Source: an uncultured Bacillota bacterium
Lineage (GTDB): Bacteria; Sysuimicrobiota; Sysuimicrobiia; Sysuimicrobiales; Segetimicrobiaceae
Assembly (NCBI GenBank): GCA_963804645.1
Contig: CAWDRG010000009.1
Location: 992,001 to 1,056,000 of the forward strand
Length of the DNA stretch: 64,000 nt
Reading direction: 5' to 3'
Below are positions 25,249 through 35,384 of the stretch, piece after piece. Below the pieces are notes generated by a model. It searched no databases. It was not told the DNA's origin and was given only the letters and a program-made list of their open reading frames with translations. Each line of letters starts with the position of its first letter. Positions within the stretch are counted from its first letter, which is position 1. The position numbers were made by a program, and so were the translations under genes.

Positions 25249-27168
25249 ATGAGCCTGGAGGCGGGAAACGGGACGGGCCTGTCGGTCGAGCAGCTGCTGG
25301 CGCTGCGGGGAGTCGGGGCCGGCGACGCGCCGCAGTGGGGAACGGAGACGCCGCGGTGGTCCCCGGACGGGACCCAGCTCATGTTCGCGTCGGGCTTGAG
25401 CGGCGGCCTTGAGCTGTGGAGCGTGGCGCCCTCCGGCGGGGCGCCGACCCGGCTCACCGTGGGCCTGGGCGGCGTCGGCCACCTCGCCTCGTGCATGCCG
25501 CAGTGGTCGCCGACGGGGGCGGCCATCGCGTACGTGTCCGCGAAGAGCGGCGCCGACGAGGTCTGGCTGTGGTCGAGCGACGGCGGCGCCGACCGCCAGC
25601 TGACGCGCCTTGGCGCGCGGATCGAGGCGATGAGCTGGGCGCCGGACGGGCGCTCGCTCGCGGTCGCGAGCAACAGCATGGGGACGTTCGATATTTACCG
25701 GATCGCGGTGCCGGACGGCGCCGCGGTGCGGCTGACGCGCGATCAGCGCTACGAAGTGTATCCGTCGTTCACCCCGGACGGACGGATCTTGTACGTGCGG
25801 CTGAACGAGGCGTGGACCGACCACGACGTGGTGCTGATGAACGGGGACGGGACGCGGCCGCGCGTCGTGCTGCGGGACACCGACTTCTTCGACTACCACT
25901 ACGGCAAGACGTTCAACTACCCCAAGGTGTCGCCGGACGGGCGGACGTTTCTGTTCCGGTCCCACCGGAGCGGGTGGATCAACGTTTGGGAGGCCCCTGT
26001 CGAAGGCGGGGAGGCCCGGCCGATTGCGCCCGCGGAGGCGGATCAGGGGGACGCCGCCTGGTCGCCCGACGGCCGCGCGATCGCCTACACCGAGAACCAC
26101 AACGGCACGCTGGACCTGCGGGTGGTCGCGCGCGAGGGGGGAGCGCCCCGGGTGCTCGTCGCGCCGGCGATGGGGGTGTGCGCCGGCCCCGCGTGGTCGC
26201 TCGACGGTGCCGAGGTGAGCTATCTCCTCGGCACGCCGACGGCGCCGAACGACATCTGGGTGGTGGCGGCGGCGACCGGTGCGGCGCGGCAGCTGACGCG
26301 CTCGATGCTCGGCGGCGGGGTGGCGCAGCGGCTCACGGTGCCCGAGAAGATCACGTACCCGGCCGCTGACGGACGGACGATCCACGCCTACCTGTACCGG
26401 CCCGCGTCGCCGTGCGGGGCCTCCCCGGGCATTCTCTGGATCCACGGCGGGCCGACCAGCCAGTTCGTGGACTCGCTCCAGCCGCTGGTTCAGTACTTCG
26501 TGCAGGCGGGCTACACGCTGCTGCTGCCGAACGTGCGGGGCAGCTCGGGCTACGGGCGGGAGTTCGAGGATCTCAACAACGGGGACTGGGGCCACGGGGA
26601 CCTGCGGGATGCGATGGGGGGAGCGGACTATCTCCGCGGGCTGACGGGCGTCGACGCCGCCCACATCGGCATCACCGGCACGAGCTACGGGGGGATCCTG
26701 AGCATGGCGGCCGTTGCCTACGCGCCGGCGGGGACGTTCCAAGCGGCGATCCCGTGCTCCGGCTACGCGGATTTCGCGCACATGCACGGGGAGCAGGAAC
26801 TGCGCCACGTGAAGCTGCTCGAATACGAGTTCGGGACGCTGGAAGACCATCCGGACGTCTACCGCCGCTGCTCGCCGCTGTATTCGGTCCCGCAGGCGGC
26901 GACGCCGTGCTTCGTCATCCACGGCGAAGGCAAGTACCCGGGTTCGGCCGCCGCCAAGAACTTCGCGCTCGCGCTGGAGGCCCACTACAAGGCGTTCTGG
27001 TACAAAGCCTATCCGGGCGAGACGTACTACGTCCTCGGGGAGTCGAACGTGAAGCAGATGCTGCGCGACATGCGCGACTTCTTCGATCTGTACCTCAAGG
27101 GAATCCCGCACCGGCGGGCCGACGACGGCACCCGTCCGCACACGCACCTGAGCGGGGTGCGGCCCTGA
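25249..27168 (+). CDS. S9 (prolyl oligopeptidase/acylaminoacyl peptidase) family protein with PD40 beta-propeller; Asp/His triad positions atypical
   Basis: Repeated WSPDG motifs, IHGGP, NVRGSSGYG and GTSYGG; HGEGK and YPGETY occupy the canonical HGxxD and YPxEGH positions. Confidence 0.85.
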   Translation: MSLEAGNGTGLSVEQLLALRGVGAGDAPQWGTETPRWSPDGTQLMFASGLSGGLELWSVAPSGGAPTRLTVGLGGVGHLASCMPQWSPTGAAIAYVSAKSGADEVWLWSSDGGADRQLTRLGARIEAMSWAPDGRSLAVASNSMGTFDIYRIAVPDGAAVRLTRDQRYEVYPSFTPDGRILYVRLNEAWTDHDVVLMNGDGTRPRVVLRDTDFFDYHYGKTFNYPKVSPDGRTFLFRSHRSGWINVWEAPVEGGEARPIAPAEADQGDAAWSPDGRAIAYTENHNGTLDLRVVAREGGAPRVLVAPAMGVCAGPAWSLDGAEVSYLLGTPTAPNDIWVVAAATGAARQLTRSMLGGGVAQRLTVPEKITYPAADGRTIHAYLYRPASPCGASPGILWIHGGPTSQFVDSLQPLVQYFVQAGYTLLLPNVRGSSGYGREFEDLNNGDWGHGDLRDAMGGADYLRGLTGVDAAHIGITGTSYGGILSMAAVAYAPAGTFQAAIPCSGYADFAHMHGEQELRHVKLLEYEFGTLEDHPDVYRRCSPLYSVPQAATPCFVIHGEGKYPGSAAAKNFALALEAHYKAFWYKAYPGETYYVLGESNVKQMLRDMRDFFDLYLKGIPHRRADDGTRPHTHLSGVRP

Positions 27169-29968: not shown

Positions 29969-31099
29969 CTAGGCGGCGAACCGGTCGAGCCGGAACAGGT
30001 TGAGATCCCACCGGCTGCGCCCGTCCGTCGCGAGTTCGGCCATGATCTCCCCGACGACGCTCGCGAACTTGAATCCGTGGCCCGAGAAGCCCGCGGCGAT
30101 GGAGACCTGCGGACATTCGGGATGGACGTCCAGGATGAAGTGTTCGTCCGGGCTGTTCGTGAACAGACACGTCTTGAGGGCCATCGTCGGCCCGTCGGCG
30201 TCGGGAAAGTACAGGCGGATGCCCTCGCGCAGCACCGCCTCGTCCTGGGGGTGGATCGCCCGGTCGACGCGGTCGGCGTCCGTGGCCTCATCCCGGTGGT
30301 GGTACTTCCCGAACTTGAACCCCGGGACGCCGTACTCCGGGAAGCCGTAGAACCGTCCGGCCGGTCCTTCCATATTAAAGACGGGGAACGTGTCGAGCCG
30401 GAACCGCTCCGGCCGCAGCGGCCGCGTCCAGATCAGCACCTGACGCTCCGGCACGGCGAGGCGCGCCAGCGCCGGCACGAGTTTCGACGCCCACGGCCCG
30501 GCCGTCAGCACGAGCTTGGCGGCCGTGTACGCGTGCCGGGAGGTCCGGACCCGCACCCCGCCGCCGTCGGGCTCCCAGGCGACCACCGGCTCGCGGGCGC
30601 GTACCTCGGCCCCCGCGTCGTGCGCGGCATTCACGTAGGCGACGATGGCGCGCTCCGACATCACGAACCCGCCGTCCGGCTGGTACACCCCGACCATGTC
30701 GGACGGCAGGCGGTACCCCGGGAAGCGCGCGTGCAGCGCGTCTGCGTCGAGGGTTTCGTGGTGGAGGTGGTGCAGCTCGCACGACCGCAGCGATCCGCGG
30801 ATGGTGGCGCTGTCCCTGGGGCCCGCGTCGATGCTGCCGGTGATGAGCAGCAGGCGCTCCGACGAGAGGTGCTCGATCTCGCGCCACAGCTCGTAGGCGC
30901 GGCGCAGCAGCGGGACGTAGGACGGGTGCTCCCAGTACGCGAGGCGGATGATGCGGTTCGTGCCGTGCGACGACCCCTGGTCGTGGGGGATGTCGAACTG
31001 CTCGAGGCCGAGCACGCGCAGCCCGCGGCGCGCGAGCTGGTACACGGTCGCGCTGCCCATCCCGCCGACCCCGACCACGATGACGTCGTAGTGCGCCAC
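29969..31099 (-). CDS. solA: N-methyl-L-tryptophan oxidase / monomeric sarcosine oxidase family (FAD)
   Basis: GVGGMGS, GSSHGTNRIIRLAY, TCLFTNSPD.HFILD and GFSGHGFKF; GGAGG RBS favours the GTG at 31099. Confidence 0.88.
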   Translation of the reverse strand: MAHYDVIVVGVGGMGSATVYQLARRGLRVLGLEQFDIPHDQGSSHGTNRIIRLAYWEHPSYVPLLRRAYELWREIEHLSSERLLLITGSIDAGPRDSATIRGSLRSCELHHLHHETLDADALHARFPGYRLPSDMVGVYQPDGGFVMSERAIVAYVNAAHDAGAEVRAREPVVAWEPDGGGVRVRTSRHAYTAAKLVLTAGPWASKLVPALARLAVPERQVLIWTRPLRPERFRLDTFPVFNMEGPAGRFYGFPEYGVPGFKFGKYHHRDEATDADRVDRAIHPQDEAVLREGIRLYFPDADGPTMALKTCLFTNSPDEHFILDVHPECPQVSIAAGFSGHGFKFASVVGEIMAELATDGRSRWDLNLFRLDRFAA

Positions 31100-31258
31100 T
31101 GGCGGCACCTCCAGAGGCCCCGTTTCGGAGCCTACGGTGATGATTCGGTCGCGCTCTACGCGGCCCTGCCGCCTGGTGTTGCTCGGGGGTCCGAGCTGGT
31201 GGCGGACCTCAGGCGCCGGGACACAGCGTCCGGCGGCCTCCGCCGCACCGCAGTCGCA

Positions 31259-33346
31259 TCAGGCGATCGGATGCGGGTTTGTCTCGACCGCACTCGAGCG
31301 TAATCGATCAAGCCGCGGGTTCTTCACTCTGGGGTGTGCGCTGCCGAAGTATATCGGCTGCATATACACTCCGAACGCGCGCACCACACGGATCGGCGCC
31401 AGCTTGACGTCCGGCGAGGTCACGTCGACGGCGGCGGTTCGGATGCCGGCCTCAAGTAATCGGGACACGCAGGTTGAAAGGTTGGCGGGCTCGCGATAGC
31501 TGGAGCGCAGGCTGGCGAGCGAGGCGGGCGCCTCCGTATCGCCGCGAAACGAATCCAGGCCGGTCGCATGCGCGGGATGCACGTAATAGAGTGCATGATC
31601 CAGGCTGGTCACGACATCCTCGTTCTTCAGAACGTCGCGATGCCTGCCGTCTCGCATCAATCGGCGCATGTACGCGCCGTAGTGGCCGTGTTCAAAGACC
31701 GCTCGCTGCAACGCGATATCGATATCCGGGTGAGTCCCGAGTCCGATAGTGACACCGGGCCACGAATGCCCGTCACCTAATCCGAGACAGACACACGTGG
31801 GATGGCGCGTGCCCACGTCGAGCACATACAGTTCCGTGGTTGCGCCCAGACGCTCAGTGTCCCGCAACGCCTGAGACGTGGCGTGATCGCAACCATCTTC
31901 CGCAACGCGCCGACCCGGGCGTCGCGCAAGCCAGAAGAGCATGAACGCATCACGCTCAATCAACTCGTACAGCGCGCGCAACGCTGCGTCTTCGAGGGTC
32001 GTACCGGCAGCGAGACCGCTACTCGTCGTTTGGCAAAAGCGTTCGTCGGCGGCGACCGGAAAATTCATATATGTTGCGAGCGCGGGGACCTGCACCAGTT
32101 CGTTCGTGTCGAGCCAATGCCCGGGGGCCCACAGCATGCGCCGGTCGGGGTCGAAGCGCGAATACGGAAACCCGGGTCGTGCATACACCGCATCGTCGTA
32201 CAAAACCAGCCAGCGCGGATCGAACGCCCGGTCCGCCAGCGTGCTGAATGGCGCGTACGTGAGTGTAGATACGTCCCAGAGCGACGCGGCGTACCGCTCG
32301 AGACCTTCTCCCAACGCACTGCGAATCGCATCCTCGCGGGTGGCACCCTTGCCCTCGCCATTGAAACTCGGACGCAGACCGTGTCCGTCGCGGTACGGAG
32401 CCATGACGACGCTGCTGCAGGACGGCACGACCGCTGTGTCGGTCCCGTCGCCGTCGTAGAGCAGCACTCGCCGCACGAGCCCGGCCCGAGGATCGGCGAG
32501 CAGCCGCAGCTCTTCCGGGACGTGCAGCGAGTGCGTCAATGACGCGAGTTTTGACGGACCCACTATTGCTGCGGCCCCGCCGCACGTCTCGCACCAGGGC
32601 ATCGGCAGCACCGAGTGCAGCGTAGAGATTTCGTCGCCTTGGATGACGACGCATCCGTAGGCCGCGACATCGGGATAGCGAAGCGCAAGGAGCACGTTCT
32701 CGGCGGCGACGCGAGCTGCAACGGGCTCCTCCAGGGCTCGCGGGTGGCTTGCGCCAGAGATTGAGTCGAACAGGCGCAGTCTGCAGCAGTTCCAGCAGGC
32801 CGTGTGCATCGGGATAGCCAAAGGCCCGTAGAAGACTTCCGAGCCGTGCCTCCAGATTGGCATCGATCGAAGGCGGGCTTGGTGGATGTGTCGCACCAGC
32901 CGCAGCGCATCATGAACATCCAGACCGGAAAGGTCGATGATTGCGAACGCGCTGTCCGCCGCCGTTTCGCGCGCGCGGATCCCGAACCCAACCAGGTGAT
33001 CCATCACGCGGGTCGTCAACGCGGTCTGCCGGGGCGCCCACACAGAGGCTTCGTCATCGGACGACGCGGTATGCGCGGTCTGAGCCGAGGATATCCGGAC
33101 GATATCGGCGTCCTCGAGTTGACGACCAAGAACGTCAACCCAGTCACGTGAGTAAGGAAGATCCTCCCCGCGTATCTCGCCTGCGTTCCCGAGCGCGGGG
33201 AGGACCTCGAACATAAGACCATGCGCTGAATCCTTGTTTAGGCGAAAACACCCCTTCGACGACGAAACAATCGCACCGTCGCGCGTCGCCGCTATCCGGA
33301 CGTTGGGCGCGAGGCGAATGCGATTGCTATCCGCCTCTGGCGCCAC
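31259..33346 (-). CDS. Fused RRE / E1-like (TOMM C) / YcaO cyclodehydratase-type protein, 695 aa
   Basis: YcaO ATP-binding motifs GKG..SALGEGLERY, TSSGLAAG and ALYELIERDA; Pro-rich C-terminus PHPIA; E1-like region with GP....TACWNC and PWCETC Cys pairs; N-terminal RRE-like beta/alpha segment. Confidence 0.88.
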   Translation of the reverse strand: MAPEADSNRIRLAPNVRIAATRDGAIVSSSKGCFRLNKDSAHGLMFEVLPALGNAGEIRGEDLPYSRDWVDVLGRQLEDADIVRISSAQTAHTASSDDEASVWAPRQTALTTRVMDHLVGFGIRARETAADSAFAIIDLSGLDVHDALRLVRHIHQARLRSMPIWRHGSEVFYGPLAIPMHTACWNCCRLRLFDSISGASHPRALEEPVAARVAAENVLLALRYPDVAAYGCVVIQGDEISTLHSVLPMPWCETCGGAAAIVGPSKLASLTHSLHVPEELRLLADPRAGLVRRVLLYDGDGTDTAVVPSCSSVVMAPYRDGHGLRPSFNGEGKGATREDAIRSALGEGLERYAASLWDVSTLTYAPFSTLADRAFDPRWLVLYDDAVYARPGFPYSRFDPDRRMLWAPGHWLDTNELVQVPALATYMNFPVAADERFCQTTSSGLAAGTTLEDAALRALYELIERDAFMLFWLARRPGRRVAEDGCDHATSQALRDTERLGATTELYVLDVGTRHPTCVCLGLGDGHSWPGVTIGLGTHPDIDIALQRAVFEHGHYGAYMRRLMRDGRHRDVLKNEDVVTSLDHALYYVHPAHATGLDSFRGDTEAPASLASLRSSYREPANLSTCVSRLLEAGIRTAAVDVTSPDVKLAPIRVVRAFGVYMQPIYFGSAHPRVKNPRLDRLRSSAVETNPHPIA

Positions 33347-33530
33347 CGGCAGCGGGACCGGTTGCTCCGGCGCTTCCTGCCTCGCTGAGCACTTTCAGGG
33401 CTTTCATGAAGGTCTCGCCACACGGCTCGCATTGATTGCATTCCATGCACTGGAAGCGCCTTGCGATGATCGAACTGATGGTCGCCAGGGAGTCGACGAT
33501 CTTTTCCATATCGTACTGCTTTCCCGGCAT
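33327..33530 (-). CDS. Small Cys-rich peptide (67 aa), putative YcaO substrate / RiPP precursor
   Basis: GGAGG 6 nt upstream of the ATG; own promoter; CMECNQCEPC motif; 3' end overlaps the YcaO start by 20 nt. Confidence 0.75.
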   Translation of the reverse strand: MPGKQYDMEKIVDSLATISSIIARRFQCMECNQCEPCGETFMKALKVLSEAGSAGATGPAAGGARGG

Positions 33531-33633
33531 AGGTCGCCTCCATTGGGCATGATAGTCGTCCTCGAGCGCGAAACGCTAGCTGAGCCTTTGGGACACCGAG
33601 AGGAGCACTACGAGACAAGATCGTTACACAGCC

Positions 33634-33677
33634 ATTGTGGGGATAGCGGTTGAAGGGGTCAACCCTCAAAAGGTCAA
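33634..33677 (-). promoter_or_regulatory. Sigma70-like promoter with overlapping palindrome, driving the peptide-YcaO unit
   Basis: Minus strand TTGACC (33662-33657), 17 bp spacer, CACAAT (33639-33634); a second TTGACC at 33677-33672; imperfect palindrome TTGA.GG-N6-CC.TCAA at 33650-33669. Confidence 0.55.
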
Positions 33678-33992
33678 TTACGCGGTCGCGAACGATAGCA
33701 GGAACCTGCCTGATAACTATCCCGTCGCGGCGACGAAGATATCTCGCCCCTGTTCGAACCGCCGATCGGGCCCGGATAGGTGATCTTAGCGACCGTGTTT
33801 CGGCCCCGTTCGGCGGTCGGCGTCGTCGTCATCGGATTGATCCGCGAGCGGCGCGAGGCCGGTATCTCGCCGTCGGCACTCAGGCAGGAATCGTGATCGG
33901 CGCGGCCCAAGGGGATGCGCGCGGCGGTCGACCGGGTGCGGATGGGCGCCGGTCGCGCGTCGATGCGAATGATCCCTACGCGGGGTGTGCGT

Positions 33993-35384
33993 GTGGCCGA
34001 GGTCGACAGATACGATGCGATCGTAATCGGATCCGGGCAGGGCGGAAACCCGCTCGCGGAAGCGTTGGCCGGAGCCGGCCGCCGGGTCGCCATGATTGAA
34101 CGGAAGCACGTCGGTGGCACCTGCGTCAACGAGGGCTGCACCCCGACGAAGACGATGGTGGCGAGCGCCCGGATCGCGTATCTCGCCCGCCGCGCGTCGG
34201 ACTACGGGGTGCGCGCCGGCACCGTGACGGTGGACATGACGGCGGTGCGGCGCCGCAAGCGCAGGATCGTCAACCTCTGGCGGAGCGGGAGCGAGCGCGG
34301 CCTGAAGAAGGCGGCGGGCCTGGACCTGATCCGGGGGGAGGCGCGGTTTGAGGGGCCGCGGCGCGTCGCGGTGGCCCTCTCGCGCGGCGGCACGCGCGAG
34401 CTGGTCGCGGACCAGATCTTCATCAACGCCGGCGCGCGGCCGGCGCGGCCCGCGGTCCCGGGGCTCGAGACCGTCCCGGTGCTCGATTCGACGTCGATCA
34501 TGGAGCTCGGGGTCCTTCCGCGGCACCTGCTGGTGCTCGGCGGCGGCTACATCGGCTTGGAGTTCGGGCAGATGTTCCGGCGATTCGGCAGTGCGGTGAC
34601 GATCGTCCACCGCCACGGGCGCCTGCTCGATCGGGAAGACCCGGACATCGCCGACGCGATCGAGGGCGTGCTGCGCCAGGACAAGGTGAAGCTCGTGCTG
34701 GACGCCCAGACGCTGCGGGCGGCGCCGGGGCCGGGGCGGACGATCCGCCTGACCGTGCGCGCGTCAGGGGCCCGGTCGCCGCGCACGCTCACCGGCTCCC
34801 ACCTCCTCGCGGCCACCGGGCGCGTGCCCAACACCGATCGTCTCAACGCGGCGGCCGCCGGCGTCGAGCTCGATGCCCGCGGCTTCGTTCGCGTCAACGA
34901 GCGTCTCGAAACGACCGCGCCCAGCGTGTACGCGCTCGGCGACATCAAAGGCGGGCCGGCGTTCACCCACATCTCGTACGACGACTTCCGCATTCTCGAG
35001 ACCAATCTGCTGCGGGGCGGGCAGGCGACGACCCGCGACCGATTCGTGCCGTATACCGTGTTCACGGACCCCGAACTGGGCCGGGTCGGTCTCGGCGAGA
35101 CCGAGGCGCGCGCGCAGGGGCGCGCGATCCGGGTGTTTTCGATGCCGATGCGGCGGGTCGCGCGCGCGGTGGAGATGGACGAACCGCGGGGGACCATGAA
35201 GGTGGTCGTGGACGCGCGGTCCGGGCAGATTCTGGGGTGCGCGGTCCTCGGGATCTTCGGCGGCGAGCTGATGTCCCTGATCGAGGTCGCGATGATGGGC
35301 GGCCTGCCGTATACGGCGCTGCGGGATGCGACGCTCGCCCATCCGACGCTCTCGGAGGCCTTCAACAACCTGTTCGACCGCTAG
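33993..35384 (+). CDS. Flavoprotein disulfide reductase (mercuric-reductase-like / RclA-like; lacks the MerA C-terminal Cys pair)
   Basis: GSGQGG, redox-active [25 protein letters not shown] and HPTLSE. Confidence 0.88.

Follow-up and report, generated by a model that had tools for sequence, protein, structure and literature searches.

Cyanobactin cyclodehydratases such as LynD and TruD (PDB 4V1V and 4BS9) combine an RRE (a recognition element of RiPPs, peptides that are made by the ribosome and modified after translation), an E1-like domain, and a YcaO domain in one chain, and have a small Cys-rich gene adjacent. Heterocycloanthracin systems (TIGR03601; PMC2674419, PMC4603692) have precursors with Cys-Xaa-Xaa periodicity and a TIGR03604-type enzyme, comprising an N-terminally truncated cyclodehydratase together with separate F and B proteins (PMC4603692); the B protein, a flavin mononucleotide (FMN) dehydrogenase, is optional in thiazole/oxazole-modified microcins (TOMM) and linear azol(in)e-containing peptides (LAP) (PMC4603692). 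Bufferins/oxazolin (PMC12452194) are small metal-binding proteins in which Cys residues are converted to heterocycles by an MNIO enzyme. Here, we analyse a 64,000-nucleotide (nt) stretch of DNA (the window; positions 992,001 to 1,056,000 of contig CAWDRG010000009.1, assembly GCA_963804645.1, uncultured Bacillota bacterium) that contains a 67-residue four-Cys peptide gene directly upstream of a gene for a fused YcaO cyclodehydratase. The peptide–YcaO system is real, conserved, and apparently undescribed: no account of the family was found in the openly available main-text literature. The system is a self-contained 2.3-kb two-gene unit. Its putative substrate, which resembles a folded miniprotein whose core lies in the middle, is more strongly conserved than the enzyme.

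The peptide and YcaO genes form a rare, horizontally moved two-gene cassette that travels without other shared genes. Of the close-clade loci, 18 include DNA upstream of the enzyme gene, and in all 18 the peptide gene is directly upstream of it (six further loci are cut at a contig edge, L015 is divergent at E 0.014, and L026 is a near-duplicate of L025). The 18 enzymes placed on a quick tree of 35 rows group as a single clade (SH-aLRT 100), and the named hosts, an actinobacterial metagenome-assembled genome and a Paraburkholderia, are unrelated. In the window, the interval 31099..34010 holds an inserted cassette of ~2.7 kb, with 63% GC versus 71–72% in the flanks and a third-position GC content of 0.71–0.73 versus 0.91–0.95; in two genomes of the same genus (G002 and G005), the genes that flank the insertion are 223 and 188 nt apart, versus ~2.9 kb here. 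No convincing repeats were found at the insertion ends; a 15-nt imperfect inverted repeat (87%; 31086–31100 and 33599–33613) lies near the cassette ends, and, as 1 of 40 such pairs, is probably due to chance.

Scanning the flanks of 19 loci (80 open reading frames (ORFs), 78 of them from 115 heuristic calls) revealed no common gene family, and in particular no shared protease, exporter, dehydrogenase, or immunity gene, and no TfuA family member or other partner (for TfuA, the search covered the flanks). The FMN dehydrogenase of TOMM/LAP systems is absent from the flanks, and neither its family (SagB, TIGR03605) nor the TldD family was found in the 96.8%-complete genome. Searches with the peptide profile found no match in 93 further genomes of the same phylum, 400 other genomes of the order of L001, or 298 other genomes of the family of L002 (2 not scored, 5 limited). 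Among viral contigs, 146 pattern matches included no peptide relative, and YcaO was represented by one weak fragment; a plasmid search returned 115 YcaO records, all of them distant and all with less than 80% coverage of the query.

The peptide gene (P0001; 33327..33530, minus strand) is supported by its ORF, by homologue searches, and by the ratio of nonsynonymous to synonymous change (pN/pS). A Shine-Dalgarno (SD) sequence, GGAGG (33537..33541, minus strand; computed pairing −9.3 kcal/mol), stands 6 nt before the ATG, and a sigma-70-like promoter match, TTGACC-17-CACAAT (33634..33662, minus strand), occurs upstream at chance level (1 found, 0.5 expected). The peptide comprises, all on the minus strand: residues 1–27 (33450..33530), an extended N-terminus with a Y/F-E-I pattern followed by amphipathic helix 1, a putative RRE-binding leader; residues 28–38 (33417..33449), the core, C-M-E-C-N-Q-C-E-P-C-G, with the highest conservation; residues 39–52 (33375..33416), an amphipathic, conserved follower helix with a terminal A-G; and residues 53–67 (33330..33374), a variable Gly/Ala tail with a purine-rich end that overlaps the open YcaO frame. 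A first-pass annotation of this DNA had described four Cys at three-residue spacing in the 67-residue ORF, and the codons at 33449, 33440, 33431, and 33422 indeed specify C28, C31, C34, and C37. Its description of an amphipathic leader ending in R-R-F holds as to amphipathicity (hydrophobic moment 0.54 over residues 8–26, reached by 2.4% of 5000 shuffles) and needs amending as to the end, R-R-F being residues 24–26 with Q27 preceding C28. The follower is likewise amphipathic (hydrophobic moment 0.56 over residues 39–50, reached by 1.4% of 5000 shuffles).

The four-Cys ORF is more than a chance pattern: CxxCxxCxxC occurs in 3 of the 11,508 Met-started ORFs of 40–100 residues in the genome, and the other two resemble Arg/Ser-rich off-frame readings. 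A contig from a peat RNA library covers 33358–33568 with 1 mismatch (four runs compared, one of them RNA), a weak hint that the peptide gene is expressed, as DNA can occur in such libraries; the YcaO gene has no contig in the RNA run, which proves nothing.

Homologues of the peptide were collected by a single-sequence search (9 homologues), by a profile search of 1.84 billion representatives (23 matches at E ≤ 1e-3, of which P0149 and the C-terminal part of P0153 were judged untrue by reading and P0152 was unread), and from the loci themselves (18 further copies, overlapping the other two sets). The resulting family alignment, A4, holds 39 sequences and omits, as partial, extended, doubtful, or duplicate, P0135, P0141 (which lacks C34), P0146, P0149–P0153, L002, L024, and L026. 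Conservation of the Cys positions had been set beforehand as the test on which the first-pass annotation could fail, and the positions are conserved: C28 in 34, C31 in 38, C34 in 37, and C37 in 36 of 39 members. Also kept are core positions E30, N32, E35, P36, and G38 (33–36 of 39), leader positions E9, L15, A16, S19, and R25 (34–37 of 39), and follower positions F41, M42, A44, L45, L48, and G52 (34–38 of 39), bearing out the earlier view of a core bracketed by leader and follower; the Gly/Ala tail of that description is not a family feature, the segment after G52 being unconserved and 2–34 residues long. The core is central, with 17–49 residues C-terminal to C37. Divergent members, L015:3748-3948 and P0154, have five Cys or C-Y-E-C-D-P-C-W-E-C cores.

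Pairwise pN/pS over 16 loci is 0.30 for the whole peptide, comprising 0.36 for the leader, 0.06 for the core, and 0.51 for the follower, values that are rough, with synonymous sites near saturation. Mean identity over 105 (non-independent) pairs is 64% for peptide residues 6–52 versus 52% for the cognate enzymes. The peptide has no Pfam match at E ≤ 1 and matches NCBIfam models only far under their cut-offs. The AlphaFold2 model from the 39 sequences predicts a helix (residues 8–29), a loop, a second helix (residues 39–51), and a disordered tail, with a mean predicted local confidence (pLDDT) of 68. A wide fold search with this model gave nothing distinctive (best Z 4.8), and an ESM Atlas search with the peptide gave no usable feature match and, by structure, only generic helical hairpins.

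The enzyme gene (31259..33346, minus strand; 695 residues from a GTG, the true start being uncertain) encodes, by sequence and model, what is a standard TOMM-type fused cyclodehydratase, with the SagD-type YcaO (D), RRE/E1, and ATP-site/Pro C-terminus features of that class; the small Cys/Ser/Thr-rich precursor expected beside a TOMM/LAP enzyme is likewise present. Specifically, it scores 222.6 bits against TIGR03604 (cut-off 219.25), E 9e-62 against PF02624, 27.2 bits against TIGR03882 (under the cut-off of 36.9), and 78 bits against TIGR03266 (cut-off 365). Its parts, all on the minus strand, are: a predicted winged-helix domain at residues 9–79 (33110..33322), located by model secondary structure and labelled RRE by likeness to LynD; a shortened E1-like domain (32579..33046) that has no ThiF Pfam match and contains two CxxC pairs, C184/C187 and C252/C255, invariant in 67 of 67 enzymes; and the YcaO catalytic domain (31262..32353; PF02624), ending in P-H-P-I-A. 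The AlphaFold2 model (pLDDT 89.6) shows the winged-helix, short E1-like, and YcaO domains, and its top PDB match is LynD (4v1v; E 4e-33, TM score 0.65, 787 columns), with TruD next to LynD among the best and MusD among the nearest solved relatives. Invariant in 67 aligned enzymes are K333, E347, E350, S442, G444, A446, E461, E464, R465, D466, and E552, all of which, A446 apart, we take to be ATP-site residues of YcaO. The C-terminus reads P-H-P-x-A/S in 91 of 94 close enzyme proteins, and C-terminal prolines matter in McbD (PMC6395948). The enzyme group has ~100 members of 45–65% identity, and the clade carries its own E-H-G-H and G-E-G-K-G motifs. An ESM Atlas search with P0005 returned three unnamed clusters at 0.80–0.81, the chance level.

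Compared with LynD and TruD, the enzyme is 18% identical and has a shorter E1 domain, the PatA/PatG proteases and the dehydrogenase are missing, and in the putative substrate an invariant core lies centrally, followed by a helix that is also conserved. Compared with heterocycloanthracin, the peptide has, in nearly all members, four central Cys rather than a long, variable, low-complexity C-terminal Cys-Xaa-Xaa repeat, the enzyme keeps its own RRE without an F protein, there is no B protein, and the precursor is adjacent. Membership of the heterocycloanthracin family, which the Cys periodicity had brought to mind, was rejected: TIGR03601 matched none of the 39 peptides at E ≤ 0.1, and the flanks contain no F or B protein. 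Two further identities were rejected: a thioamitide (TfuA–YcaO) system, on the TIGR03266 score given above and the absence of TfuA among the 80 flank ORFs, and a 4Fe-4S ferredoxin-like protein, on a spacing of CxxCxxCxxC rather than CxxCxxCxxxCP and the lack of a Pfam match at E ≤ 1. Bufferins differ in using an MNIO enzyme rather than YcaO and in having a Sec signal peptide and export; no signal-peptide-like hydrophobic stretch was seen on reading the peptide.

Among the closest enzyme relatives recovered, at 37–42% identity, are those of uncharacterised three-gene systems (L031–L034, L043, L044, L049, L076, and L089), akin to Sorangium TOMM proteins P0121–P0127. These systems share the C-terminal P-H-P-x-A, a helical leader, and CxxC repeats often ending in C-G-P-C; they differ in having a ~810-residue enzyme with a full ThiF domain, a normal start codon, an intergenic gap, long variable C-terminal cores without a follower, and, in each of the 5 tested, a downstream gene for a SagB dehydrogenase. 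The peptide–YcaO system looks like a reduced, fixed derivative of this type, a putative descent; the tree leaves the root unresolved, and precursor-profile homology between the two was not detected, the P-K-D-F/L-E-I/L leader likeness being visible by eye only. The related systems, and also L045, have a D-L-E-L-R-V-T-E-L-E-type leader, L089 has two tandem precursors, and 2 of 11 related-system precursors match TIGR03601 faintly (best E 0.0015).

We favour a reading in which the YcaO enzyme puts one or more thiazolines into the loop of an uncut hairpin miniprotein, a reading to which, taken as a whole, we give an even chance. That the peptide is the substrate of the enzyme is very probable, given the strict linkage of two genes that move together without other shared genes, and given the enzyme type. 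In the proposed mechanism, the RRE would bind the N-terminal F-E-I segment and helix 1 of the peptide, and the ATP-dependent YcaO domain would then cyclodehydrate the loop, most likely at Thr-tolerant C28 and perhaps at C37. Thr replaces C28 in 4 of 39 members (L001, L021, L036, and P0148), and the first three each have a Cys-bearing neighbour on the tree, indicating three independent changes. A Cys-to-Thr change takes two base changes, and Thr is cyclisable but a poor metal ligand; the repeated change therefore points to position 28 as a modification site. C31 and C34, which are the best-kept Cys and each have a Glu neighbour, may remain free thiols, because LynD disfavours Asp/Glu beside the modified Cys (10.1101/2024.10.14.618330). 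The rings would remain thiazolines rather than be oxidised, because no dehydrogenase was found at hand. The follower helix would pack on helix 1 and belong to the product, and the enzyme, made at a low level by weak-start re-initiation, would leave the peptide in excess.

The product is probably uncut and intracellular, because the hydrophobic face of the follower is conserved, the core is near-invariant, and there is no shared protease or exporter. The preference of the first-pass annotation for an uncleaved product over a cleaved bacteriocin fits these features, together with the lack of a shared dehydrogenase and of TldD and SagB. The least sure step is the one in which the modified loop may bind a soft metal (Cu or Zn) or serve as a redox CxxC site; a metal or redox function, for which bufferins are the model, is a tentative proposal by analogy. 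Binding of the peptide to the RRE/E1 part, also set beforehand as a test of the first-pass annotation, finds weak support in complex prediction, with a score of 0.37 versus 0.00 for the best of three controls, to which likeness to solved LynD–leader complexes may contribute. Among reference pairs, 116 of the 157 solved ones and 2 of the 215 mismatched ones attain this score (18 of the solved and both mismatched pairs lie at 0.60 or under), with runs agreeing in at least 4% of contacts and a partner pLDDT of at least 47.

Several points weigh against this reading. Profile comparison reveals no similarity between the leader and the related systems' precursors (probability 9.8); each Cys is lost in some A4 member, with the full set of four in just 31 of 39; and the hairpin model is middling (pLDDT as above, predicted TM score 0.47). 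In addition, genes for peptidases or transporters do occur in single flanks (L002 has S8 and MFS, L023 pro-kumamolisin, and L001 M23), many locus contigs are short, which limits the view of the flanks, and a protease other than TldD may act in trans.

The junction between the two genes (33317..33346, minus strand) places the peptide stop codon, TAG (33329–33327), at the start of YcaO homology, with the YcaO frame at +1; candidate enzyme starts on this strand are a GTG at 33346 (weak SD, −2.9) and an ATT at 33319 (SD −7.5). A contig from a DNA run, whose source is possibly near-identical, spans the junction without an indel. Across 18 junctions (the window and 17 others, with the duplicate L026 dropped), the stop abuts the first conserved RRE strand in all 18 and is TAG in 14, TAA in 2, and TGA in 2 (TAG ends 1223 of 3488 long ORFs of the genome). 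The enzyme frame is +1 in 14 junctions and +2 in 4, which fall in three separate tree branches and whose enzyme frames are otherwise open; a homopolymer error was considered for L001, which shares its branch with L017, where a different indel gives the +2 frame. In the YcaO frame, pN/pS is 1.24 over the 10 codons before the stop, 0.57 over the 10 after it, and 0.43 thereafter. On these sequence comparisons, the enzyme is under purifying selection from the first codons past the peptide stop, not before. No conserved RNA structure was found at the junction (0 pairs), and no description of such a junction was found in the openly available main-text literature. Divergent locus L015 has a canonical TTGA start overlap between the two genes.

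No enzyme start codon is conserved across the 18 junctions. GTG, TTG, and ATG upstream occur at chance level (12 observed versus 10.1 expected by synonymous resampling, P 0.21; a second frame tried as the control, 13 versus 4 of 18, was dropped since its composition differs), and in 9 of 18 loci the first position of the strand is TTG, CTG, GTG, or ATT, a count that does not discriminate, as the site also prefers Leu. The enzyme is probably made by re-initiation at weak starts beside the peptide stop, which we consider likelier than recoding and which fits the tolerance of both frames and the purine-rich tail ends. A stop-C-start geometry is known from M13 gV–gVII (PMC2268962), and CUG, AUU, AUC, and AUA initiate at 1–2% of AUG (10.1101/063800). 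Re-initiation fits less well with the 5 of 18 junctions that lack ATG, GTG, and TTG from −60 to +12, with L017, which lacks even a near-cognate start codon, and with the first conserved enzyme position, where the codon is often for Trp, Pro, Phe, or Ala.

Recoding would account for the same junction differently: some ribosomes would shift +1 at the peptide stop and make a ~756-residue precursor–linker–RRE–E1–YcaO fusion, with the Gly/Ala tail as the linker, in which the attached leader would turn on the enzyme, or the attached core would undergo modification in cis. We regard this as rather unlikely, and the fuller version, a natural recoding-controlled RiPP in which most ribosomes release the hairpin and a minority make the fusion that activates YcaO or is modified in cis, as unlikely. 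The constant position of the stop, the prevalence of the +1 frame and of TAG, the absence of ATG at the first strand position in all 18 junctions, the onset of purifying selection after the stop, and the chance-level frequency of upstream start codons all accord with it. So do the database enzymes, of which 58 of 102 are called with a start inside or past the RRE (some perhaps being contig fragments) and, among 37 N-terminal extensions, 31 agree with a +1 stop in exact register; the related systems, in turn, keep a clean M/V-x-x-I-R-L start. The layout would be that of engineered leader–linker–enzyme fusions of LynD and MicD, and joining leader to enzyme in this way makes the enzyme constitutively active (PMC9052802); the openly available literature yielded no natural example.

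Against recoding, a direction-specific signal would not tolerate four +2 junctions in three branches, and the RNA structure is not conserved. In a prfB-type +1 frameshift, a weak stop follows a P-site codon that can re-pair, and an SD lies just upstream; here, C follows the stop in 9 of 14 +1 junctions and the upstream sequence is purine-rich, but the codon before the stop varies (GAG, GAA, AAG, GGA, CGA, and others) and would rarely re-pair at +1. Reading of N-termini revealed the peptide fused in frame in 0 of 120 enzymes among the matches listed. One in-frame core–follower–RRE fusion, P0151, was not accepted as proof: it is a single-member, truncated, leaderless 168-residue record and may be an assembly error, its same-source relatives P0163 and P0164 being split by frameshifts. 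If true, recoding would be nature's counterpart of the engineered LynD fusion, an instance beyond prfB of a frameshift triggered by a stop in bacteria, and a way to a thiazoline-bearing folded metal-binding protein from two genes.

As to the product, the peptide might instead be the precursor of an ordinary azoline natural product: the core would be cyclised, housekeeping proteases would cut it out of leader and follower, and a general transporter would carry it outside to act as an antibiotic or signal. The standard TOMM-type enzyme, the long Cys-Xaa-Xaa-repeat precursors and SagB that adjoin related enzymes, the dispensability of accessory genes in such clusters (PMC2674419), and the stronger constraint on the core than on leader and follower speak for such a product, which we nevertheless think improbable: there is no shared protease, exporter, or immunity gene, no TldD was found, the core is near-invariant rather than diversified, the follower helix has a conserved hydrophobic face, and ahead of C28 the family alignment has neither Gly-Gly nor another conserved cleavage motif. 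Least probable is an unmodified Fe-S/Zn partner or regulator, with YcaO acting on another target or by another chemistry (amidine formation or MusD-like backbone cleavage). In its favour are the retention of four Cys in 31 of 39 members, the faint matches to Fe-S models (9 of 39 members match TIGR04395 and 2 of 39 HgcB ferredoxin; best E 0.0018–0.0099, none near cut-off), the clade-specific enzyme motifs, and the closeness of MusD; against it are the repeated Cys-to-Thr change at position 28, a spacing unlike ferredoxin CxxCxxCxxxC, the retained RRE and E1 domains, and the lack of TfuA or another partner in the flanks scanned.

If shown, thiazoline formation in the uncut hairpin would be natural azoline formation inside the loop of a folded protein, which has so far been engineered: MicD-F modified Cys in a loop of the helical bundle Rop (PMC9052802). 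The two genes would then also make up a small tool with which to modify peptide backbones. Because the start codon is missing, gene callers often truncate the RRE of the enzyme, making the family easy to miss or mis-clone, and the junction is a simple test case for weak-start re-initiation versus recoding.

Near the cassette in the window, a pyridine nucleotide-disulphide oxidoreductase gene (33915-35384, plus strand), divergent from the cassette, is native to the genus and outside the insertion; its start is probably later than 33915, as homology with relatives runs from 34011. A TolB-propeller plus S9-type peptidase (25249-27168, plus strand) lies 4 kb from the cassette, and nothing ties it to the cassette. 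In L014 (1427-5563, plus strand), directly upstream of the cassette, lies a second RiPP-like cluster: first a gene for a 154-residue protein with coiled-coil ends and P-V-V-D-P-x-P-W-P repeats, then two B12/radical-SAM genes, of which one passes TIGR03975 (709.7 bits). In L001 (3098-5149, minus strand), divergent from the cassette and beside a DUF1360 gene, lies a gene for a 683-residue protein with Trp- and Cys-rich stretches and no Pfam or NCBIfam match.

Other small ORFs precede YcaO genes. One precursor family comprises a helix, C-x-D-P-P-x-x-C, and a basic tail (L042:1697-1909, L057:2642-2845, L060:311-517, L062:5117-5314, and L080:1741-1959); the YcaO genes in L057 and L062 are short (~520 residues) and without CxxC pairs. 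In L037:4932-5207 and L038:4956-5231, the precursor is long, helical, and rich in Ala, has a C-V-C-I-C core and an acidic follower, and overlaps the YcaO frame. In L054:5677-5940, an 88-residue Cys-free ORF directly precedes a stand-alone YcaO of ~420 residues ending in I-P-P-x-C, and similar enzymes occur in L047, L051, L063, and L072.

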